Below, one piece after another: positions 34,456 to 46,141 of a stretch of DNA of 64,000 bases. Source of the stretch: Desulfobacterales bacterium (GTDB lineage Bacteria > Desulfobacterota > Desulfobacteria > Desulfobacterales > UBA5616); the NCBI GenBank assembly GCA_046483495.1, contig JAWODC010000090.1, positions 89,785-153,784 on the forward strand. The letters run 5' to 3'. The notes below the pieces were generated by a model. The model worked only from the letters and a program-made list of their open reading frames with translations, searched no databases and was not told where the DNA came from. Both the position numbers and the translations under genes were made by a program. Within the stretch, counting starts at the first letter, position 1. The number at the start of each line of letters is the position of its first letter.

Positions 34456-35790
34456 ATGAATAAAGATAATCAACCCATACCCACCCGGATCGATACCTTG
34501 GGAGAGTCCAAGATCACCTCTCCGGCGATTCTCAGAGAGGATCATACCCGGGTCGTGAATCTGGTTTCCGAGGAAGACAGGGTCCTGATCGATGTCAACG
34601 CCCTGAGCATCACCGAGCGGATCCGCAATAACGAGGAGATCCCCTCTTTTGAAATGGCCGGCCCAAGAAGCAAAATATATTTCGATCCCAGCAAGCTGAA
34701 ATGCGCCATGGTCACCTGCGGCGGATTGTGTCCGGGTTTGAATGATATCATTCGCGCCATCGTCCTCGAACTGTATTACGGCTATGGCGTACGCCACATC
34801 TTCGGTATCCGGTACGGCCTGCAGGGATTCATCCCGGGCTACGGGCATGATATATATGAATTGAATCCCGCCCGGGTTACAAACATCATGGAGATGGGCG
34901 GCTCTATCCTGGGGTCCTCCCGGGGACCGCAACCCATCGATGAAATCGTGGATTGCCTCGAGCGGATGAACATCAGCATCCTCTTCATGATCGGTGGAGA
35001 CGGGACGATCCTCGCTGCATCGAAAATAGCCAATTACATCAGCGAAAATCGTCTGAACATCAGCGTTATCGGGATCCCCAAGACGATCGACAACGACATT
35101 TACATGGTGAATAAGTCATTCGGCTTCGATACGGCTGTCGATGTCTCGACGCAAGCCATCATGGGAGCCCACAATGAAGCGGTCAGCTATCCAAACGGCA
35201 TCGGAATGATCAAGCTCATGGGACGGTATTCCGGATTTATCGCCGCGACAGCCGCGCTGGCCCAGCAGGACGTCAACTTCGTTTTGATTCCTGAAATCGA
35301 TTTCGATCTTGACGGGACCTCCGGGCTGTTGACCAAATTGGAAAAACGCATTCACAATAGAAAGCACGCCGTGATTGTAGTGGCGGAAGGCGCCGGCCAG
35401 AAATTTTTCGAAACGGCGAGAGCGGAACGGGATGAATCGGGAAACATTCGACTGCATGACATCGGCATCTATCTAAAAGACGCCATCGGTGACTATTTTC
35501 AACGCAAAGGCATCGAAATCACGTTAAAGTACATCGATCCCAGTTATATGATCCGAAGCCTGCCGGCCAATGCAAATGACAGCGTTTTCTGCAGCTTTCT
35601 CGGCAGAAACGCCGTTCACGCCGGAATGGCGGGAAAAACCAAAATGCTCATCGGACACTGGAACGATTATTTCGTTCATATACCCTTCGACGCCACCGCC
35701 GGAAAACGCAAACAGGTAGATCCCCACGGCACCCTCTGGCGAAGCGTACTTGAAGCCACGGGACAGGGAAACCTGAAAAACGGCGCATGA
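34456..35790 (+). CDS. 6-phosphofructokinase (ATP-dependent clade)
   Basis: TCGGLCPG, GGSILGSSRG, IGGDGT, PKTIDND, LMGR and YIDPSY. Confidence 0.92.
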   Translation: MNKDNQPIPTRIDTLGESKITSPAILREDHTRVVNLVSEEDRVLIDVNALSITERIRNNEEIPSFEMAGPRSKIYFDPSKLKCAMVTCGGLCPGLNDIIRAIVLELYYGYGVRHIFGIRYGLQGFIPGYGHDIYELNPARVTNIMEMGGSILGSSRGPQPIDEIVDCLERMNISILFMIGGDGTILAASKIANYISENRLNISVIGIPKTIDNDIYMVNKSFGFDTAVDVSTQAIMGAHNEAVSYPNGIGMIKLMGRYSGFIAATAALAQQDVNFVLIPEIDFDLDGTSGLLTKLEKRIHNRKHAVIVVAEGAGQKFFETARAERDESGNIRLHDIGIYLKDAIGDYFQRKGIEITLKYIDPSYMIRSLPANANDSVFCSFLGRNAVHAGMAGKTKMLIGHWNDYFVHIPFDATAGKRKQVDPHGTLWRSVLEATGQGNLKNGA

Positions 35791-36263
35791 TTCCGCCGGA
35801 CTACGGACCGCATCGAATGGCGTTAAGGACAATTTTTTATCGACACCGTACCATGCCTCGCCTGATCATAAGATATACACTACTGCAGCTTCCCGGATAT
35901 GTTCTGCTTATCCTGGTCCTTATCCTGCTGCGACGGATCGTGAATATTCCCGACACCACCCTGTGGGCCGTTCTCGGTTTGTGGTTGGCAAAGGATATCG
36001 TGTTGTTCCCCTTGGTGGGACGGTATTATGCACCTGAAAACTTCCAGGACCGATTTTCAATGATCGGAAAAGACGGCATCGTCCAGAAACCGCTGGCACC
36101 TGCCGGAACCATACGCGTCCGGGGAGAACTCTGGAAGGCGGAAGTTACGGAACAGTGGCATTCCATCGAATACGGCCGGCGGGTGGTGGTGCAGGACATC
36201 AAAGGTCTTACGCTGAAAGTCAAGCCTGCGGAAAATTCCGAAAAGCCGTCTAAAACGCCTTAA
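35787..36263 (+). CDS. Short NfeD-family membrane protein
   Basis: Two TM segments plus OB-fold motif G.IRVRGELWKA...GLTLKV; start is uncertain. Confidence 0.75.
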   Translation: MIPPDYGPHRMALRTIFYRHRTMPRLIIRYTLLQLPGYVLLILVLILLRRIVNIPDTTLWAVLGLWLAKDIVLFPLVGRYYAPENFQDRFSMIGKDGIVQKPLAPAGTIRVRGELWKAEVTEQWHSIEYGRRVVVQDIKGLTLKVKPAENSEKPSKTP

Positions 36264-37660
36264 GGGATGAGCACTCCCGGATTCATGAAATTTTCCGTGT
36301 CCAGGACGCCTTTGATTTTCCTTAACAGACTCACCCCGGTTTCCCCCACTTCATCAGGCATCCAGTTTCGCCTGACCCGGCCGATGCCATGGTGATGCGA
36401 AATTCCCCCGCCGCCGTCGATGGTCGCTTCCATGACGCGTCGCCAGCATTCGTAATAAACCGCCTCCATTTTCGAGGCATCTTCCACTTTTGCGGCAAAT
36501 GTGAAATAAAGATTGATGCCGGAACGGTAACAGTGGGAACTGTGGGCCGAAGCGTTTAACATGTTTTCCACTCGATTGAGTGAAGAAACGGCGTTTTCGT
36601 AGATGCCGCCGATGCGGTCCCATGTGGCGGCGATTTCAATCGTATCAAGAATGATATTGTTTTGCAGGAAGCTCTCGAATCCGGATACATGGTTACGGTC
36701 CTCGAGCCATTTCTTCACCATTTCCACAGGGGCGGTATCACAGCCGAGATCAGCGGCAATTTCCGAGCATTCACGCATTTCCGCCGCCACCTGCCCGGCG
36801 GGCCCCTCGTGCACCAGAATGACCACGGCGTCTTGATTGCGGACCTGCTCCGGGAAAAGGCGTTTGGCTTCGATGTGGTCGTATTGCCGCATGACCGGGG
36901 GCGTCCATCCGGATTGAATCACGAATCGCTGGAACGCGATGCCCTTTGCCATGGTGGGCGCATAGTAGGCGCTGTAATCCTGCTTCTGCGGTTTCCATCG
37001 AAGCGAGAAGGTTGCGGAACAAATCACGCCCAACGTCCCTTCGCTTCCGATGAACAGCTGCTTCAAATCCGGCCCGGAAGCGGCGCGCGGGGTAAGCCGC
37101 GTATTCAGGACCTCGCCGTTCGGCAGTACCACCTCGAGTCCCATGACCATGTCTTCCACGGCGCCGTAAGCGCTGGAAAACTGTCCGCACGACCGCGTGG
37201 CGAGCCAACCGCCTATGGAGCTTACATCGATGGATTGGGGAAAGTGGGCGATGGTCATGCCCTCCCTGGCCACCGCTGCTTCGGCATCCGCACCACGAAC
37301 ACCGGCTTCGAACGTTGCCAGGAGATTATGTGCATCGATTTTTCGAATCTTTTTCATAAAACTCATGTCCAGAAGAATGGACCGGGGAGAAGCAATGACA
37401 CCGCAGACCACGCCGGAACCCAGCCCGAAGGGAATCAAGGGCACCCTGTTTTCCCGGCAGACATTGACAACGGCGATTACGTCCTGCGTTGTCCGCGGCG
37501 CTGCAACGCAAGCGGGATTGGGGGCCCCCCGTCCCTGAAGGTCCGCCAGTTGGCTGACTACCGAATAGTCATGCCGCCGTTCCATCAAAAAGGCTTCATC
37601 TGTTTTGACTTTATCCACACCGATTGCCGAGATTATTTTTTCAGTAATGTCAACTGCCAT
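36260..37660 (-). CDS. FAD-binding oxidoreductase, alkyl-DHAP synthase / YgcU-like
   Basis: HFPQS, SSIGGWLATRSCG, GPDLKQLFIGSEGTLG, HSSHCY..GINLYF and SHHHGIG. Start set at ATG 37660. Confidence 0.85.
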   Translation of the reverse strand: MAVDITEKIISAIGVDKVKTDEAFLMERRHDYSVVSQLADLQGRGAPNPACVAAPRTTQDVIAVVNVCRENRVPLIPFGLGSGVVCGVIASPRSILLDMSFMKKIRKIDAHNLLATFEAGVRGADAEAAVAREGMTIAHFPQSIDVSSIGGWLATRSCGQFSSAYGAVEDMVMGLEVVLPNGEVLNTRLTPRAASGPDLKQLFIGSEGTLGVICSATFSLRWKPQKQDYSAYYAPTMAKGIAFQRFVIQSGWTPPVMRQYDHIEAKRLFPEQVRNQDAVVILVHEGPAGQVAAEMRECSEIAADLGCDTAPVEMVKKWLEDRNHVSGFESFLQNNIILDTIEIAATWDRIGGIYENAVSSLNRVENMLNASAHSSHCYRSGINLYFTFAAKVEDASKMEAVYYECWRRVMEATIDGGGGISHHHGIGRVRRNWMPDEVGETGVSLLRKIKGVLDTENFMNPGVLIP

Positions 37661-37703
37661 ATTTCGCTTCTCCTTCACCTCCAAGTCATTTCTCGATTGA
37701 ACG

Positions 37704-39035
37704 CTAAGCCGACAAAAACGCTTCAACCACATCTTCGGCCTGTTCGGGCATTATCCCGAGCAAAAAAGACAAATCGAGCACCGTGAACCGTTCTCTCATC
37801 TGGTTGGCATGTTTCACCACTGTTAAAAAACGCTCCCGTTCGATGCTCCGGTTGTCAATGCGAATATCACTTATTTTGTGGGCCGCCCCCGCCGTTTTGA
37901 GACAATGTTTAATGGTATGCGGCGGCAACAGGGTATCCTTTATGATCGAGCGCAAATTGTCCCAGTTTTCAGGGTGTGACAAAGTGCGCGCCGCCGCCTC
38001 GAACTTCGGCAGCTTTTTGCGATATTGGTCTTTCACGACTTCGATTAACGGCCCCCAGAATCCCTGATCCGCTTCGAGGGGGATCTTGGCGAATCGCGGT
38101 TCTTCAATTTCCAGAACCCTTTCATACAACGCCGCCGAAAAAATGGTGCCGACACCGACTTGCCTGCCATGCAAATCATGCTTTTGCCCGTTAACCGATG
38201 ACGTCATGTCGATGGTATGGGATATGAGATGTTCTCCTCCTGATGCCGGGGCCGAGGTGCCGGTAATGGTCATGGCGACGCCCGAGTAGAAAAGCGCCGC
38301 AAAAAGCGCCTGAACAGCCTCGGCATCCCGCTGCCGGATCTTCTCGGGGCTGCCGAGATAAACGGGTTCCAGGTCTTTTAAAAGATCGACGGAAAATCGG
38401 CAGTAGTAATCATCGAACAAAAACCGGTTCAGCCTCCAGTCCGCGGAGCTGACGGTTTTTGCAATGACATCCCCAAGCCCGGAGACGGTCAGCTCGAAAG
38501 GGGCGTTTTCGATGATTTCCGGCACGGCGAAAACCGCTTTGCAGGCCTGCGAGGGAAAAAGCACCTTAAGTCCGTCAATGGATGCGGATACATTTGCCGA
38601 CGCATAGCCGTTCATGGAAGCCGCGGTCGCGAAAGTCAGAAAAGGTTTTTGACGCTGATAGGCAATCCATTTGGTTAAATCATTGACGACCCCGCTTCCC
38701 GCAGCGATATACATGTCGGCGTCAGGCGCTTGCTTTATAATCGTGTTAACGGTTTTATCGTCCGTCACCGGCGATTCGCCGTGGCGGTCCGCAACAATGC
38801 AGTGCCGAACGGAGCTGCCCATCGTCTCGAGTGACTGCTCGATAAAACACCCGGCAACCTTATAGGTCCTTTCATCAGCTAAAATGAGATAATCCGGTTT
38901 TAAAGCATGGCGTCCGGCCACCCGGGGGATGTGTTCTACGGCATCCGAACGGTAAATCAGGTGATCCGTTGGAACGGTATGTATTCGCCCGCATTCGCAC
39001 TCAAAGGACTTCCCCAATACATCGCTTGTATTCAC
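37704..39035 (-). CDS. sn-glycerol-1-phosphate dehydrogenase (AraM/EgsA-like)
   Basis: N-terminal CECGRIH, GSGVVNDLTK, ASMNGYAS, GLGDVIAK, PASGGEHLISH, LHGRQVGVG and RERFT. Confidence 0.85.
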   Translation of the reverse strand: MNTSDVLGKSFECECGRIHTVPTDHLIYRSDAVEHIPRVAGRHALKPDYLILADERTYKVAGCFIEQSLETMGSSVRHCIVADRHGESPVTDDKTVNTIIKQAPDADMYIAAGSGVVNDLTKWIAYQRQKPFLTFATAASMNGYASANVSASIDGLKVLFPSQACKAVFAVPEIIENAPFELTVSGLGDVIAKTVSSADWRLNRFLFDDYYCRFSVDLLKDLEPVYLGSPEKIRQRDAEAVQALFAALFYSGVAMTITGTSAPASGGEHLISHTIDMTSSVNGQKHDLHGRQVGVGTIFSAALYERVLEIEEPRFAKIPLEADQGFWGPLIEVVKDQYRKKLPKFEAAARTLSHPENWDNLRSIIKDTLLPPHTIKHCLKTAGAAHKISDIRIDNRSIERERFLTVVKHANQMRERFTVLDLSFLLGIMPEQAEDVVEAFLSA

Positions 39036-39121
39036 GCTTACTCCTCAGGTTGAGCCATATCGAAAAGCAAAAGCATTCGGTGAACGAGGGCGCATCGAAC
39101 GCTTGCAAAAAACCGCCGACG

Positions 39122-40678
39122 CTATTCATCGCTGCTGTAATGGTTGATTTTCATACAGCGCTTATACAGGGGTGCCAGTGCGCTGTATGTCTTTAAATAA
39201 ACATCGTTGAAAAGCCGGTCATAAATGGCGGTGCTTCTGCTGTCGGGCAGAAACTCCCGCCCGACTTCCACCATGGAGTCCACCGCTTCATGAAAGTCGT
39301 TGAACATGCCCACACCGACGGCCGCATCGATAGCGGCGCCGAGTGCGCAGGTTTCGTAGTTTTTCATCCGTTTTGTCGGCAGGGCGAAAACGTCGGCGGC
39401 GATTTGTACGGCGACATCGCTTCTTGAGCCGCCGCCGCCTACCCGGATTTCTTTGAGTTGAACTCCCGTTTTTTCCTGAACGATGCCGCTCAGGCGCCTG
39501 AGTTCGAATATAATGCCTTCCAGAATGGCGCGATAAATATGTGCCCGGTTATGATCGCTCGAAAATCCGATAATCGAGCCTTTCGAATATTTCAAGGAGG
39601 GATGGGGTGTCCAGTGGGGATGGAGCATAAGGCCATTCGAACCCGGTGGAATATCTTTGATGACATTATCCAGGAGCGTTTCGGGAGCGGTTTTTCGCTC
39701 CATCGCTTCAATTGCCTCCCGTTGGCCCAGCTCCTGAATGAACCAGCGGGCCATCCAAAACCCTCTGTAAATAAAGCTTTCAAGATTCCAGGCATCAGGC
39801 ACAGCGGCGCACCACGTAAAAAACCGCGACTTTTTGTCTTCGATGTATTTTCTGGACAATATACCCAGCGTGGCCGCCGTTCCAAAAGAGATCGTTCCGA
39901 TTTCCGGGGACACGGCACCGGTACCCAGTGATTCGGACTGCTTGTCGCCCGCTCCGACAATCACAGGAAGATCTTCAGGCAAACCGGTTTCCCGTGAAGC
40001 GGCCTTCGTGACAAATCCTAAAATTTCATGCGGCTTATAAATTTTCGGCAGGTGATCTCTTCGAATTTTGAAGATCTCGAGAAGATCATCGCTCCCATAC
40101 CAGTCGAATTTTTTGTATTCCAGCGGCCAGAGACCGGCGAACATGGAGGCGGAATCATGAAAATGTCCTGTCAGTTTTTTTACAAACCAACCGGACACAA
40201 GGCAGAACTTATGCGTCTTTGCATATATGTCCGGCTCGTTCTTGTGTATCCATGAAAAGAAGGAATGCCTCTGAATGACTTTGAGGGCATTCGATTTTCC
40301 GATAAGCGCAAAGATCAGTTTTATCTTCTTTCCCACCGGCGGGGGATCGTCAAGATAGCGCTGGTCAAGCCAGATAATGGCGTTTCGCAGGGCATTTCCC
40401 TGTTTGTCCACCGGAATGACATTGCCGCGCTGCGTCGTGATTCCTACGCCGGCAAGCCGTGCAGGATCGAATCGGCCGCTTTTCATTACCTTGTTTGTCA
40501 CCATGCAGAATTTGCGCCAATAATCTTCGGGCTTCTGTTCCGCCCACCCCGGATTGAGTGAAAAATAGGGCTCGTGAAGCGCTCTGGCCGAGGCCGCTTC
40601 ATTCCCTTGTCTGTCGTACACAATGGCGCGAACGCTTTGCGTACCGCTGTCAATTCCCATGATCAGATCTTTTTCCAC
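39122..40678 (-). CDS. FGGY-family carbohydrate/polyol kinase
   Basis: MGIDSGTQSVRA, GWAEQ, WLDQR, GAGDKQ, YRAILEG and GGGSRS. Confidence 0.9.
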   Translation of the reverse strand: MEKDLIMGIDSGTQSVRAIVYDRQGNEAASARALHEPYFSLNPGWAEQKPEDYWRKFCMVTNKVMKSGRFDPARLAGVGITTQRGNVIPVDKQGNALRNAIIWLDQRYLDDPPPVGKKIKLIFALIGKSNALKVIQRHSFFSWIHKNEPDIYAKTHKFCLVSGWFVKKLTGHFHDSASMFAGLWPLEYKKFDWYGSDDLLEIFKIRRDHLPKIYKPHEILGFVTKAASRETGLPEDLPVIVGAGDKQSESLGTGAVSPEIGTISFGTAATLGILSRKYIEDKKSRFFTWCAAVPDAWNLESFIYRGFWMARWFIQELGQREAIEAMERKTAPETLLDNVIKDIPPGSNGLMLHPHWTPHPSLKYSKGSIIGFSSDHNRAHIYRAILEGIIFELRRLSGIVQEKTGVQLKEIRVGGGGSRSDVAVQIAADVFALPTKRMKNYETCALGAAIDAAVGVGMFNDFHEAVDSMVEVGREFLPDSRSTAIYDRLFNDVYLKTYSALAPLYKRCMKINHYSSDE

Positions 40679-40680
40679 GA

Positions 40681-42072
40681 TTATCCCCCTATCGTCATTC
40701 CTATCGGAGAAAGATCAGGCTCCCAGGTCGGATCTTGCTGTTGGTAATAATCGAACAGCCTGAGGCGGTTCGACTCGGCCTTGCGGATAATATCCTGTTC
40801 ACTGATGATCCCCCGTTCGATCAGTAATTTATCCAGTTTCAGGGAAGCCTGCTGATACGGCAGGCACCCGTGCAGGAACGTATCGTAACCCGCAAGCGCT
40901 ATCTTGTTTCTGAGCTCCAGGGCTTCACCCGAACACCCGATGGCGCAATCGCCCAGAAAAAACGTATTTTTCAAATCCCACTCTTTCCCGGGCGGGATCT
41001 TTGGATCACTGCCTACGATTAAACTCGTCCTTTCCTTGATTTTGGAAAGGGAGCTTAAAACGCGCGCAGCCATCAGCCAGCAGGAGGAACAGGCTCCGCC
41101 GATATAGACATCCACGCTCGGGTAAACCCCGGTCACGAACGTGTCGATCGGCTGGACGTAATTCAATGGGAGCTGGAATTTCTTTCTCACAGAATCCACG
41201 CTTTCTCCGGTGACCTCGATTTCGGCGGGGTTGGCAACACCGAGGCCTTCGTGGGCGGCAATGCGCGTGGTATTGACCACGAGTGGATTGTCGATCCCCA
41301 TCACCTGCGTACAAACGGAATCGACGGCGACCACATCGCTGCCCGCCAGCACGATCCCCATGGGAACAGGCGTACCCGATTCTCCCGCGCCCATCCCCTC
41401 CATGCCGATCAACCCGTCGACAAGGGCCAGGTCGGGCTTTCGCACCTTCAAAATGTCAACCAGGTGCTGGTCAAGATCGTCGCGGTGCCCAAAATAACGG
41501 TCGCTTTTCGTCAGGATTCCCTGGAGGTTTTTGATGCCCAAAGTCACCATGGTCATGGTGTGGGTTTTCAGTGCCGGCAGATCGATGAAAACATCCGCCT
41601 CGAGAACAGCCTTTGGATAATCCAGGGCATGCAGGACTTTTCCCCCCGGGACCGTCACCTTTTCGGTTTCAGCGTCTTCCACCCCCATGATTGTACCGCC
41701 CGCCTCGGTTACCGCCCTTTCGACCCCCAGCAGTTTCATAATCTCGACGGTTTTCATGCCCCTGACCAGTATTTCCGATGCACGGCTCTTGTCGGCGTTC
41801 GCCCGGCTCATCAGGCTTCCGACGCTCACCCCTTCGAGGACCAGGACCTCTTTTGCACCGGCAGTCTTGCAAAGCGCCACGAGGGCTCCGACAACCCTCC
41901 GGTCCACGGAAATGGGGGGCGGATACGGTGCAAAAATATTCGGCTTTATGACAACACGACTCCCTTTTTTGACATAATTTCCAATACCGCCGACAAGATC
42001 GACGGCCTTCTTCACCATGCGCTCGATATCCTCTTGCCGTATCGGAAATTCGGATTTGACGATTGAAACCAT
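40681..42072 (-). CDS. DUF362 domain Fe-S protein
   Basis: VVIKPN, LPALKTH, TLGIKNLQG, DGLIGMEG, DVVAVD, and C-terminal ACSSC/GDC/GCLP. Confidence 0.85.
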   Translation of the reverse strand: MVSIVKSEFPIRQEDIERMVKKAVDLVGGIGNYVKKGSRVVIKPNIFAPYPPPISVDRRVVGALVALCKTAGAKEVLVLEGVSVGSLMSRANADKSRASEILVRGMKTVEIMKLLGVERAVTEAGGTIMGVEDAETEKVTVPGGKVLHALDYPKAVLEADVFIDLPALKTHTMTMVTLGIKNLQGILTKSDRYFGHRDDLDQHLVDILKVRKPDLALVDGLIGMEGMGAGESGTPVPMGIVLAGSDVVAVDSVCTQVMGIDNPLVVNTTRIAAHEGLGVANPAEIEVTGESVDSVRKKFQLPLNYVQPIDTFVTGVYPSVDVYIGGACSSCWLMAARVLSSLSKIKERTSLIVGSDPKIPPGKEWDLKNTFFLGDCAIGCSGEALELRNKIALAGYDTFLHGCLPYQQASLKLDKLLIERGIISEQDIIRKAESNRLRLFDYYQQQDPTWEPDLSPIGMTIGG

Positions 42073-42387
42073 TATTCACTCTCCTATAGGTTTCGGTTTT
42101 CCTGCACACGTTGACCGGTGGCCGGGCAACGGGCGGTAAAAAGCTGATTTGGGGATAAGATCTGCCGGTACTGGATTATTTCTCTATCAAAGCGGCATAG
42201 TGAACCAGTGAAAAAGAAAAATACCGGGAAATGCAGCAGATTTGCTTTGACCGTTTCTATAACTTTAATTGCATAGGCCTGTCCACTTTTTTTTCAATTA
42301 TTGTCTAACTTTCGGGGTTGAATCGGGCCATTCGCCGATGAAAAAAGGGGACGGGCGAGGGAAGCGAGACAGGCGCGACGGGACAGC

Positions 42388-42537: not shown

Positions 42538-44337
42538 TTAGTAAAATATAACGGTCACTTCGTTGGAGCAACCTTCTGAGTCACAAACCTTGTAAATGTA
42601 AGACCCGCCGCCGCGCAGATCGATATTGTCGGTGTAAGAGCCATTATTATCTATTGTCGTAATAAGCACATCATTTCGATAGATATCTACACTCGTGTGA
42701 GTTGCACCGCTCCACTCCAAATCAGCTTTTTGAAGTCCTCTGAATTTGTACCCGGTTGCGGTCAGGGTGATGCCTCCATCGCTCCCGCCGCCAACAGCTA
42801 TGGTAATGCTGTCGCTGGCGGTGTTGCCTGCCGAATCCGTCACTTCAGCCGTTATGGTGTGGGTGCCGTCACTAAGCACCGCGCTGAAAGAGCCTCCTGT
42901 GCCGATTTGTCCTTCTTTATCAGATGCCCAATCAAGGCCGGCGGTCAGGTCTCCATCTTCATTGTCGGAAGCCGAGCCGGAAAAAGAAATGGTGGCGTTT
43001 GAATCGAACGAATCGCCGTTTGCCGGTTCGGTAATATGGGCAGTGGGTGCGGCATTTTCATCACCACCTATGGCGACAAATTCAGGGTTAAAGGTGTTCA
43101 CATCGAGCAGCGGCTCCTTTATGCCGTCTCCGGAATCGTCTACCCAATCAGAGTTTCCGGCATTGATGACCTGATCGTAAAGATTGTAAACGTCCGCGGC
43201 ATCGGAGGGGTTATCGGCACTCGCCAGCAAAGCCAGGGCGCCGGCTGCATGGGGACTGGCCATGGAGGTGCCGCTGATGGTGCCGTACTCTCCCTGCTCT
43301 ATGGGAAACGTGGACAGAATGCATACGCCGGGAGCGGCGATGTCAACGGCCGAACCCCAGTTGCTGAAATCCGCCAGGGTGTCATCCTGATCGTCCCGGC
43401 AGGTCGGGCTGCCTGAGCCTCCCGGTGCGCCGTCGAAATCGGCCAGGGCGCTTACGGTCAGGACATTGTCAAAAGCGGCCGGGCTGTAATTGGCGGCATC
43501 GTCGTCTGAATTGCCGGCGGCCACCGCAAAGGCTACCCCTTTATTAACGGCGCCCTGGATGGCGTCGTATTCGGCCTGGTTAAAGCCGCCGCCGCCTAAG
43601 CTCATGTTGGCCACTTCAATTACACCCGCATTGGCGGCTACCCAGTCAATGCCGGCAACGATGCCGGAGGAGTAGCCCGAGCCGCTCGAATCCAGAACCT
43701 TGACGGCCCAGAGACGCGCGCCGGGCGCTACACCGACCACTCCGATGCCGTTGTCGATTGCGGCGATCGTCCCCGCGACATGGGTTCCGTGATAATGATC
43801 GTCATCACCACCGGTGCCTTCCGTACTGCTGCAATAGTACTTCCTCGCCCACGGCGGCCCGCCGCCGGAGCAGGTGCAGTCTACGCCGCCGGCCACATTG
43901 AGATCGGGGTGCTCGAAATCCACGCCCGTATCGATGACCGCCACCCCCACGTCGACCCGGTAGTCGTCTGTACCATCGATATCGATGTTTGTGTTCGTGT
44001 CGGCGAAAATGCGCTGAACGCCGGTGGGAACGGTCTGTGCAAAGGCGTATCGGACCTCATCGGTGACTACGTACTTGACGTTGGGATTTTTTTCCAGGGC
44101 AGCCACCGCCTGTGGGGGCACTGTGATGGAAAATCCCTTCAGCGCGTGCTCGTAAATGAATCCAACCCGCCCCCCTGCCTGCCCTACGATTTCTTTAGCG
44201 GCGTCTGCAGGCGATCTCACGCTATCGTTCAAGACGACGATATAGCCTGCATGTTCAGGGGGATCGGCGTTCACTGCGGGGGATATACCGAGCAGCACAG
44301 CCAATATAAAAACCACGGTTACAGGCATACGTTTCAT
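42538..44337 (-). CDS. Secreted S8 subtilisin-like serine protease with I9 propeptide and C-terminal Ig/PKD-like domains
   Basis: Signal peptide, VAVIDTG, HGTHVAG, AAGN and SGTSMASPH; AGGAGG RBS before ATG 44337. Confidence 0.93.
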   Translation of the reverse strand: MKRMPVTVVFILAVLLGISPAVNADPPEHAGYIVVLNDSVRSPADAAKEIVGQAGGRVGFIYEHALKGFSITVPPQAVAALEKNPNVKYVVTDEVRYAFAQTVPTGVQRIFADTNTNIDIDGTDDYRVDVGVAVIDTGVDFEHPDLNVAGGVDCTCSGGGPPWARKYYCSSTEGTGGDDDHYHGTHVAGTIAAIDNGIGVVGVAPGARLWAVKVLDSSGSGYSSGIVAGIDWVAANAGVIEVANMSLGGGGFNQAEYDAIQGAVNKGVAFAVAAGNSDDDAANYSPAAFDNVLTVSALADFDGAPGGSGSPTCRDDQDDTLADFSNWGSAVDIAAPGVCILSTFPIEQGEYGTISGTSMASPHAAGALALLASADNPSDAADVYNLYDQVINAGNSDWVDDSGDGIKEPLLDVNTFNPEFVAIGGDENAAPTAHITEPANGDSFDSNATISFSGSASDNEDGDLTAGLDWASDKEGQIGTGGSFSAVLSDGTHTITAEVTDSAGNTASDSITIAVGGGSDGGITLTATGYKFRGLQKADLEWSGATHTSVDIYRNDVLITTIDNNGSYTDNIDLRGGGSYIYKVCDSEGCSNEVTVIFY

Positions 44338-44691
44338 GATGCTTCCTCCTTGATTCATTGTTTTCAGGAAAAAACACAACTACCCGCTTTTGAGCTGTTT
44401 TTCGAATGAAGCTGTTTGTAAGACGGGTACCGCCCGGTTCGGATGGGCCGGGTTACGAGCTATCTCAAAACAATTATTCTGCTTCGAGATGGAAGCGGAA
44501 CCGCAGTTTGGCCGGAGGCATACTAACATATGTCGAGAACGTAACCTGTGGTTCCACGCGGTATTGGGACAAAAGATGATTATTTGCAGCTATAAATATC
44601 ACGTCCTAACCAACACGTCCATAATTTCTTGCCATTCTCGATTCAATTATTTTATCCCGACGCTTTCCACGAATAAAAAAGTCTGGTATAA

Positions 44692-44979: not shown

Positions 44980-45903
44980 CTACCATTCATCATCTTCGTA
45001 AAATGCGCTCGAGATTTCGCTTGTCTTTATCTTGACGGTTTCTATTTCTTCCGGACGCAGGCGCTTTTTCCAGTTTTTGATATTTTCTTTGCTGTTTCGT
45101 TTAAGCTCCCTTCCGGGCTGCTGCTCCGCAGGATTGTGAACGCCGGAAGTCTCCAGAATGCCCGACTCGACTGCGGGCGTGAACGCCAGACCGAACTTAC
45201 GGTAGATGGATTCGAAATTCCCCAGTGGATCATTGGACAAATCTTCATGCCTCACAAACAACCATTCCGGATGGTCCTCTTGGTATAGTGTTGCTGTATG
45301 GTGAATACAGTTCCAAAGCAATATGGCTTGATCGATAATCGATTGCTCTTCCTTTGCGAACTCACGTATTTCATTTTCAAATGGACCCAAATACCTGTCC
45401 ATTAACAAGGGCTGGTTCAAAAGGTTGTTAAAATTAAATTTCCAGTTCTTTATTTTCAGGCTCGAACAATATGCAGCAGGGTGCCTTATCATTACAAGGA
45501 CATTCATTCCGTACGTTTTGCTCAACCATTCAGCAGAAAAAAACGCGATAGGATCTTTGACAACAGGAGTATTTTTTCTGATTCGGTGTAACAGCGTAAT
45601 CCGTTGGTGTCTGAAAATTTTCACCACATCTTTAAATCCTCTTGCTTTGGCCAAATTGCCGAGCAGCGGGTATTTAAATTGAATAACGCTGTCAAGCGCC
45701 GCTTTATACGGATTTTCGTTTTCTTCACATACATACTGGAACCAGCAATTGAAGGGGCTGTCGACAACAGACAGTTTGTTGCGGATATTGAAGGGCTCAT
45801 GGATGTACCCGGCATGTGGCGCTAAGGCCAGAATCCTTCCAGCCCACGTCGTCCCGGACCTGTGTGAACCTGTCACTAAAATAGGTTTAATAGCATCACT
45901 CAT
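44980..45903 (-). CDS. Sulfotransferase family protein
   Basis: 5'-PSB loop VTGSHRSGTTW, HEPF, 3'-PB RHPAAYCSS and VRHEDL. Confidence 0.88.
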   Translation of the reverse strand: MSDAIKPILVTGSHRSGTTWAGRILALAPHAGYIHEPFNIRNKLSVVDSPFNCWFQYVCEENENPYKAALDSVIQFKYPLLGNLAKARGFKDVVKIFRHQRITLLHRIRKNTPVVKDPIAFFSAEWLSKTYGMNVLVMIRHPAAYCSSLKIKNWKFNFNNLLNQPLLMDRYLGPFENEIREFAKEEQSIIDQAILLWNCIHHTATLYQEDHPEWLFVRHEDLSNDPLGNFESIYRKFGLAFTPAVESGILETSGVHNPAEQQPGRELKRNSKENIKNWKKRLRPEEIETVKIKTSEISSAFYEDDEW

Positions 45904-46141
45904 GTGCAATCACATCATCATGCCTTAAATGGATTTGCTCTGAAAAAGCCGGCCACGCCCTCGATATTTTTTGCTAACTGAATAAAAACATCACACTTCA
46001 CGAAAGCTAATGCGCTCCACAAAATAAGGGGATAACATCATGAACTTTTCTGCATCTTCCGGATCAGATAACATACCCGTGAGAAAATGCCAATAATGAC
46101 GATTACACGACGAAATGGATCACAAATGGTTCACCATGGGT

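Follow-up and report, generated by a model that had tools for sequence, protein, structure and literature searches.

A G1PDH-bearing mosaic operon with a kinase and a short AGPS-like flavoprotein in a Desulfobacterales bacterium

We found that a Desulfobacterales bacterium carries, within the 64,000-nucleotide stretch of DNA analyzed (the window), a four-gene operon encoding a DUF362 protein, an FGGY kinase, an AraM/EgsA-type sn-glycerol-1-phosphate-dehydrogenase-like protein (G1PDH), and a short AGPS/ADPS-like flavoprotein (adps). The operon is a mosaic variant of a known kinase-dehydrogenase-AGPS-like module, and its four-gene order was found only here. From the gene order, protein families, and residues, we infer its substrates, direction, stereochemistry, and use of a nickel-pincer (NPN) cofactor. 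On this basis, it likely salvages substituted glycerol in this anaerobic bacterium rather than making lipids. In the particular scheme that we favor, with slightly less than even confidence, a mono-substituted glycerol (X-glycerol) would be broken down through X-DHAP, G1PDH would serve the sn-1-phosphate enantiomer, and X would probably be an alkyl or acyl group of lipid origin.

The four open reading frames (ORFs) are co-oriented on the minus strand with gaps of 2, 86, and 43 nucleotides (nt), as the first-pass annotation had described. The DUF362 gene comes first (42072-40681; 463 amino acids [aa]; PF04015), followed by the FGGY kinase (40678-39122; 518 aa; PF00370/PF02782), G1PDH (39035-37704; 443 aa; PF13685), and adps (37660-36260; 466 aa; PF01565 and PF02913). 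Domain searches and PDB matches confirmed the families assigned to all four. The flavoprotein starts at the ATG at 37660, with an AAGGAG site upstream, and the database protein likewise has 466 aa; this start corrects the ORF call and removes an overlap with the dehydrogenase gene. Contigs from two DNA runs of different studies spanned the G1PDH/adps junction, one run perhaps being the source sample and the other having 4 differing positions, and since two runs bridge it, the junction is not an assembly artifact. Upstream of the DUF362 gene, a weak sigma-70-like site (42175..42204, minus strand) is a consensus match only (9/12), and such matches were not above chance in the region (7, compared to 5.1 ± 2.4 in shuffles). 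One contig of RNA run X2 spans 42150-42219, although contigs are no proof of transcription. Among the ORFs of the window, no sugar transporter adjoined the operon, and neither the ORF list nor the domain search revealed an acyltransferase or fatty-alcohol gene within it.

Relatives of the flavoprotein have different neighbors. A GlpD-like gene lay directly upstream of them in 125 of 150 loci (29/32 for relatives with ≥58% identity). They were accompanied by a GlpK-like kinase in 105 of 134. The initial expectation that related clusters carry a GlpD-type dehydrogenase was thus correct, and it also holds for the Pseudomonas aeruginosa operon PA3026-PA3024, which encodes an FAD oxidoreductase, a GlpD-like protein, and an FGGY kinase (PMC8151288). 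In the operon described here, G1PDH occupies the upstream slot in place of GlpD. None of the 163 loci of close flavoprotein relatives contained G1PDH, and the four-gene order appeared in no other genome searched. The co-occurrence of the four genes elsewhere, on which the original proposal had depended, therefore largely fails, and this result counts against salvage. Conversely, the relatives nearly always have a kinase and a dehydrogenase of the glycerophosphate type as neighbors, which supports it. The operon shares with PA3026-PA3024 and the wider kinase-GlpD-AGPS-like module an AGPS-like flavoprotein, a non-GlpK FGGY kinase, and a glycerophosphate-type dehydrogenase, but its GlpD slot is taken by an NAD(P)-linked dehydrogenase of the G1PDH type. 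It also differs in the added LarA-fold DUF362 protein, the short flavoprotein, and a gene order found only here.

The flavoprotein gene has moved from an ancestral glpD-adps-kinase site to a position behind a DUF362-kinase(-G1PDH) unit. In the same-genus genome G401 the order is lysC-glpD-[adps-kinase]-pyrF, and the host adps is 79% identical to its G401 counterpart. The host glpD is still at the old site, approximately 71 kb from adps; it retains its full length of 544 aa and shares 74% identity with its orthologue in G401. The G401-type partner kinase of adps was not found in the host genome, in which the best match (34%) was the canonical GlpK. Instead, adps lies 43 nt behind, and in the same orientation as, a three-gene unit containing the only kinase of the AGPS-linked clade (see below) found in this 4.2-Mb genome. 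The new kinase neighbor and the apparent absence of the old one support salvage.

The receiving unit is conserved separately, since both its DUF362-kinase and kinase-G1PDH pairs recur. Eight genomes carried DUF362-kinase with neither G1PDH nor adps beside it. Within family f21, the pair follows tpi-secG, mostly with gap-pgk, in 7 of 8 genomes. In genome G117, DUF362-kinase-G1PDH is followed by an unrelated gene and not by adps; in G083, the contig stops inside G1PDH. Eight of 50 adps-bearing genomes had a G1PDH homologue, and adps was present in none of those 8 G1PDH regions. The solitary pairs, the G117 arrangement, and the adps-free regions count against salvage. Together with the intact glpD, the first two favor a somewhat unlikely alternative, in which DUF362-kinase-G1PDH would act on plain G1P or on a small, polar compound of the glycerol type. 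In this alternative, adps would have landed behind the unit by rearrangement and, if working at all, would still be paired with the distant glpD-like gene. Against such a chance landing stand the co-oriented arrival of adps at the sole site of this kinase type and the apparent loss of its own kinase. Moreover, AGPS-like genes at two other loci (L036 and L138) are flanked by the same DUF362-kinase pair, and G083 and G117 carry long AGPS-like and glpD-like genes at other sites. The sole hint that the present arrangement recurs, which we counted for salvage, is that kinase, G1PDH, and short-flavoprotein records share two contig sizes (415,550 and 543,831). The flavoprotein of those records falls in another subclade, so that any pairing of adps with G1PDH there would be an independent recruitment.

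The kinase scored below all NCBIfam cutoffs; its best model was XylB, and TIGR01311 gave 170.6 against a cutoff of 590. Only two of the five residues of the GlpK signature (R83/E84/Y135/D245/F270; PMC3245297) are kept (R84 and D245), the others being changed to G85, no Tyr, and T270, so that this is not an ordinary glycerol kinase. In a tree, it was nested among kinases adjoining AGPS-like genes (the AGPS-linked clade), and all 9 clade kinases other than K517 with known context had an AGPS-like gene in their cluster. E84 and Y135 of GlpK are missing in both AGPS-linked lineages, and the host carries a separate GlpK and GlpD. The constant AGPS-like neighbor, as well as the loss of these residues in a host with its own GlpK and GlpD, supports salvage.

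The flavoprotein most closely resembled AGPS (EC 2.5.1.26; PDB 4bby from guinea pig and 2uuu from Dictyostelium) in both sequence and fold. Its best PDB match was 4bby (phmmer, E 3.5e-54), and AGPS gave the top Foldseek matches (TM 0.86), with D-lactate dehydrogenases nearly equal (TM 0.84). The HHHGxG (H422-424) and LYF (Y385) motifs reported in the first-pass annotation are present. These residues and R258 are invariant in 46 relatives and are equivalent to the HHH loop, the Tyr (Y508/Y578), and the first Arg (R352/R419) of AGPS, which supports salvage. The proposed likeness to alkyl-DHAP synthase therefore stands for the fold, the HHH loop, the Tyr, and the first Arg, but it breaks down at two points. 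Glu329 replaces the second catalytic Arg (R447 in Dictyostelium, R515 in guinea pig), as mapped onto the alignment with an inferred +3 numbering offset for R447; Arg occupies this position in 7/7 long bacterial forms aligned and in 4/20 short relatives. In addition, the segment after R258, which we take to be possibly the AGPS gating helix, is about 20 to 24 residues shorter than in AGPS and is also shorter than in the long bacterial forms. Arg447 is important for catalysis in the Dictyostelium enzyme (PMC3509576). Both departures argue against a lipid substrate. The protein further differs from AGPS in its low identity (about 27%), its much shorter N terminus, and its kinase partner.

These departures, together with the closeness of the D-lactate dehydrogenase fold, are what one would expect if the operon degraded a small polyol or sugar (or sugar acid), with an ordinary FAD dehydrogenase and a DUF362 epimerase resembling the LarA-family gluconate epimerases. 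The XylB match of the kinase, the tpi-secG context in the f21 genomes, the epimerization of sugar acids by LarA homologues (PMC11770544), and the location of araM inside an ara operon of Bacillus subtilis (PMC5059525) point the same way. We nevertheless consider such a function unlikely. The AGPS-type motifs HSSHxY, LYF, and HHHG are kept here and absent from GlcD-type rows, and, in contrast to the "mid" clade, no gene for an Fe-S partner accompanies the flavoprotein. The usual partners of the flavoprotein are of glycerophosphate-dehydrogenase types, and no sugar transporter is adjacent. Furthermore, the related P. aeruginosa operon shares its regulation with a lipid kinase and a phospholipase C (PMC8151288). 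Deletion of that operon caused no growth phenotype (PMC8151288), which counts against salvage.

The best PDB match of the dehydrogenase was the G1PDH 9h4x (E 6e-38), the closest chain, followed by 5fb3 and 4rgq. Like the bacterial G1PDH AraM (B. subtilis) and archaeal EgsA, it retains the NAD-binding and metal-ligand motifs. The motifs first noted (G188-D189, E268-H269, S272-H273, and H289-G290) are all present; D189, E268, H269, S272, H273, H289, and G290 were invariant in a 19-row alignment, as were the NAD glycines G113 and G115. The metal ligands (D189, H269/H273, and H289) and these glycines were aligned to 9h4x. It differs from AraM/EgsA in falling below the NCBIfam cutoff (NF002022, 176 bits against 413), in having SMNG (ASMNG) at the SxDG position, and in the frequent location of its relatives behind importers: Ugp- or Phn-type importers precede 12 of 20 G1PDH homologues in the class and one 60% homologue. 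UgpB binds G1P (PMC12718374). This context points to catabolism and so supports salvage. However, the catalytic segments are essentially the same as in a Ugp-linked homologue, the probable substrate of which is plain G1P. No remodeling for alkyl-G1P is therefore visible, which favors a passenger adps and counts against salvage, as does the uphill nature of NAD-linked oxidation of glycerophosphate.

The G1PDH equilibrium lies on the side of reduction. That would suit a biosynthetic route to G1P-based bacterial ether lipids, in which the flavoprotein would convert acyl-DHAP to alkyl-DHAP and G1PDH would reduce the latter to alkyl-G1P. AGPS makes ethers in that direction (PMC3509576), synthesis of alkylglycerol ethers has been documented in a sulfate reducer (PMC11181052), and PlsY/PlsC accept both glycerophosphate forms (PMC13400652). 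Yet this route, which the first-pass annotation had offered as the reverse option, is very improbable. It would make the most constant partner, the kinase, superfluous, and the operon contains neither an acyltransferase nor a fatty-alcohol gene. Searches for PcrB/GGGPS (PF01884) and CarS (PF01864), which together with G1PDH carry out archaeal-type ether lipid synthesis, gave 0 matches in the 96.7% complete host genome, although controls were positive; GpsA is present. The importer context and the failure to find PcrB and CarS make lipid synthesis unlikely. Moreover, none of 400 other genomes of the class had a close G1PDH, and the same-genus genome gave no match, a distribution too patchy for a membrane pathway.

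The N-terminal part of the DUF362 protein has a LarA fold bearing H171, K181, and H196, and its C-terminal module (CxxC...GDC...GCLP) is weakly NuoB-like. We compared the NPN-anchor residues of LarA (Lys184, His174, His200, His108, and Arg75). H171 and K181 align with LarA H178 and K188, and H196 has about the right spacing; an equivalent of His108 or Arg75 is absent in the profile alignment, and the match (E 0.077) does not improve on that of a control (E 0.053). The host has larB, larC, and larE, but also a true LarA. The protein shares its fold with the LarA superfamily (PDB 5huq, 7s91, 9eia, and 9q3j; Pfam clan CL0471) but differs in its 12 to 16% identity, its Cys-bearing C-terminal module, its kinase neighbor, and its only putative NPN use. 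It is a candidate NPN hydride-transfer enzyme, and thus more than the Fe-S redox partner first suggested.

According to the salvage model, X-glycerol would be phosphorylated by the kinase at its free primary hydroxyl. The G1PDH-like enzyme would then form X-DHAP by oxidizing the sn-1-phosphate enantiomer at C2, and the flavoprotein would split X-DHAP into XH and DHAP. The sn-3-phosphate enantiomer would be handled by the distant glpD-like gene product, while DUF362 would provide a second, NPN-dependent hydride transfer on the same carbinol, as a dehydrogenase or stereo-inverter. A narrower version, O2-free cleavage of sn-3 glycerol monoethers, is quite unlikely. In it, archaeal-type monoethers, or the head groups that deacylated betaine lipids carry as sn-3 ethers, would be phosphorylated to the G1P configuration, oxidized by the G1PDH-like enzyme, and cleaved to alcohol and DHAP by the AGPS-like enzyme in reverse; nickel-pincer DUF362 would invert or oxidize C2, making both enantiomers usable.

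In the literature searched, we found no activity for any operon member and no assigned reaction for DUF362 or the kinase-dehydrogenase-AGPS-like module. The recycling of archaeal G1P and glycerol monoethers has been stated to be unknown (PMC12718374). The weight of the operon is limited because only a single lineage shows its gene order, which may be incidental. It nonetheless constitutes a natural experiment, in which the flavoprotein swapped a GlpD-type neighbor for a G1PDH-type one beside a LarA-fold protein, and the four genes can therefore be used jointly to test the chemistry of the module, its stereochemistry, and the substrate class of DUF362.

The first-pass annotation described four ORFs together with their families and motifs, and all were found in the window by Pfam and PDB searches and alignments. 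The ORFs lie on the minus strand, where the DUF362 gene (42072-40681) is followed after 2 nt by the FGGY kinase gene (40678-39122), after a further 86 nt by the G1PDH-like gene (39035-37704) and after another 43 nt by the flavoprotein gene, adps (37660-36260). An AAGGAG site precedes the adps start (ATG at 37660), which agrees with a 466-aa database protein. The G1PDH/adps junction is spanned by contigs from two DNA runs of different studies, one possibly being the source sample and the other differing at 4 positions. Just upstream, on the same strand, lies a gene for a subtilase with an I9 propeptide and Ig-like domains (42538-44379), after which comes a terminator-like hairpin (42521-42502). 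We take the ORF at 44980-45909, in a GC-poorer stretch (0.46), to be sulfotransferase-like. At the other end, an NfeD-like gene (35787-36263, plus strand) meets adps head-on with a 4-nt overlap of stop codons; an NfeD-like gene after pfkA was not seen in the three relatives examined.

The flavoprotein matches AGPS best in both sequence and fold (TM 0.86, versus 0.84 for D-lactate dehydrogenase), and its R258, Y385 and H422-424 correspond to AGPS R419, Y578 and HHH. Compared with AGPS, it has about 24 fewer residues after R258, possibly the place of the gating helix. Its Glu329 aligns with AGPS R447 (R515 in guinea pig, with a presumed numbering offset of +3); Arg is found here in each of the 7 long bacterial forms of the alignment and in 4 of 20 short relatives. 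The sequence suggests that the flavoprotein resembles AGPS at the flavin, yet should not be classed as AGPS.

We mapped 179 flavoprotein loci, some of them near-duplicates. Genomes contributed the best 80 of 446, a metagenome scan that covered half the collection contributed the best 80 of its 343 confirmed matches, and a phylum search added 19. In the 163 loci whose flavoprotein is at least 42% identical to that of the window, a profile of 40 G1PDH relatives detected no G1PDH; its sole non-self match (28 bits) fell in a locus with a 31% flavoprotein. Upstream DNA of 600 nt or more was available for 150 loci, and in 125 of these the gene immediately upstream was GlpD-like; at a flavoprotein identity of at least 58% the count was 29 of 32. 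A same-strand GlpK-like kinase was present in 105 of 134 loci with downstream DNA. G1PDH homologues occurred in 8 of 50 adps-bearing genomes examined (of 79), two of them close (56-60%), and none of the eight fetched homologue regions contained adps. The four-gene unit is not conserved: co-occurrence of the four genes was not borne out in the loci searched, and of the suggested exchange between G1PDH and GlpD, the GlpD-like partner was recovered there but G1PDH in its place was not. The fullest form of the module among the loci surveyed here (L138:1000-10390) holds long and short AGPS-like genes, a HAD hydrolase, GlpD, DUF362 and a kinase behind a regulator.

In the same-genus genome G401 the order is lysC-glpD-adps-kinase-pyrF, and glpD-adps-kinase is present too in two family members. 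The window's genome, G000, retains lysC-glpD and pyrF at the ancestral site (C56:52391-57066), where its 544-aa GlpD is 74% identical to the G401 counterpart and an unrelated 305-aa gene occupies the place of adps and the kinase. The orphaned glpD-like gene and the following 305-aa membrane-protein-like gene (G000:C56:53675-56267) lie outside the window. G000 adps, 79% identical to that of G401, stands about 71 kb from glpD, behind G1PDH. No orthologue of the G401 cassette kinase was found in G000 (the best match, at 34%, is canonical GlpK), and DUF362, kinase and G1PDH had no close match in the glpD-adps-kinase relatives examined.

Of the three upstream genes, DUF362 and the kinase form the conserved core. 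Among 301 phylum genomes, 12 (G000 counted) encode a close DUF362 (59-71%), and in all 11 besides G000 its gene is followed by the kinase. The kinase is followed by G1PDH in G083 and G117 (in the latter over two contigs), AGPS-like genes stand before the pair in L036 and L138, and eight genomes of family f21 carry the pair with neither G1PDH nor adps adjacent. That adps is a passenger behind the upstream genes seems to us unlikely, although not strongly so. In a 43-row kinase tree (quick search, SH-aLRT only), the window kinase is part of a 30-row clade, and all nine members of known context outside its own subgroup are clustered with an AGPS-like gene. By size, nine contigs appear common to the kinase and G1PDH record lists (chance mean, 0.8), one being too short for both genes; eight fall among the 28 closest kinases. 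Two contig sizes, 415,550 and 543,831, are common to the kinase, G1PDH and flavoprotein lists, as known from sizes and not gene order; they look like sister lineages and therefore count as one event. In seven of the eight f21 genomes (L362-L368) DUF362-kinase directly follows tpi-secG, mostly with gap-pgk. Five of them (L031-L033, L038, L040) carry, apart from this pair, a cluster centred on a more distant AGPS-like gene, which when complete also includes Fe-S, GlpD, kinase and transporter genes. Distant DUF362 homologues (34-39%) stand beside larE-larB-larC or near larE (L375:3769-8207, L374:5710-10231); G000 has 10 DUF362 matches and one LarA.

The G1PDH-like protein has intact NAD and metal motifs, with SMNG replacing SxDG, and scores far under the family cut-off. 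G1PDH matches were present in 4 of 401 phylum genomes and 21 of 401 class genomes, G000 included. Twelve of 20 class homologues (32-37%) stand immediately behind ABC importer genes (Ugp-type in 7 cases, Phn-like in 5), one Ugp set meeting the UgpB/A/E/C cut-offs and the remaining importers being assigned by similarity; four of the other eight are near contig ends. A 60% homologue likewise stands after ugpC. PcrB and CarS were not found in G000 (96.7% complete), and GpsA is present. The importer context of the G1PDH relatives supports oxidation rather than lipid synthesis, and so do the lack of PcrB and CarS and the presence of GpsA; the reverse direction entertained earlier, synthesis of G1P-based ethers, is very improbable. 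A 32-33% homologue lies upstream of presumed lpxA-, lpxB- and polA-like genes, named partly by best hits, in three genomes (L305:8821-14295, L306, L307), and a 44% homologue (L222:2423-10653, G165) lies about 4 kb from isoprenoid genes presumed to be dxs- and ispA-like. In their catalytic segments the kinase-linked G1PDHs match the close Ugp-linked enzyme; therefore no adaptation to alkyl-G1P is visible, which speaks against the proposed role on that substrate.

Passages of PMC3245297 give the GlpK signature as Arg83, Glu84, Tyr135, Asp245 and Phe270. The window kinase keeps R84 and D245, differs at G85 and T270, and has no Tyr, in a region of uncertain alignment. GlpK-like kinases of the usual cassette likewise lack E84 and Y135, and G000 encodes its own GlpK and GlpD. 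We infer that the kinase substrate is not glycerol and that there is room at the distal hydroxyl. Catabolism of a small polyol or sugar acid appears decidedly unlikely. Our preferred reading, held tentatively and at somewhat less than even confidence, starts from a mono-substituted glycerol (X-glycerol), which would be converted to X-glycerophosphate. G1PDH would take the sn-1-phosphate form to X-DHAP, the distant GlpD-like enzyme would handle the sn-3-phosphate form, and X-DHAP would yield XH and DHAP; DUF362 may carry out a hydride-transfer step with NPN, the nickel-pincer cofactor of LarA-type enzymes. Betaine-lipid head groups are sn-3-substituted glycerols, hence of G1P configuration. Any sn-3-substituted glycerol yields this configuration, including archaeal monoethers, which arise in sediments according to passages of PMC12718374; intact archaeol would be barred from the route because its C2 is etherified.

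The closest described system, PA3026-24, shows co-regulation with lipid genes and no phenotype in the passages of PMC8151288 concerned, and no characterised bacterial version of the module was found in the open-access papers searched. The operon is a real, lineage-specific form of a widespread module of putative function. Passages of PMC12718374 state that G1P is bound by UgpB and the Phn-family GpxB and call its use unknown. The importer-linked AraM-like G1PDHs (class loci L269-L277, L279, L281 and L282, and L302 for the 60% homologue) are candidates for this use, in which they would act catabolically on G1P once it has been imported.
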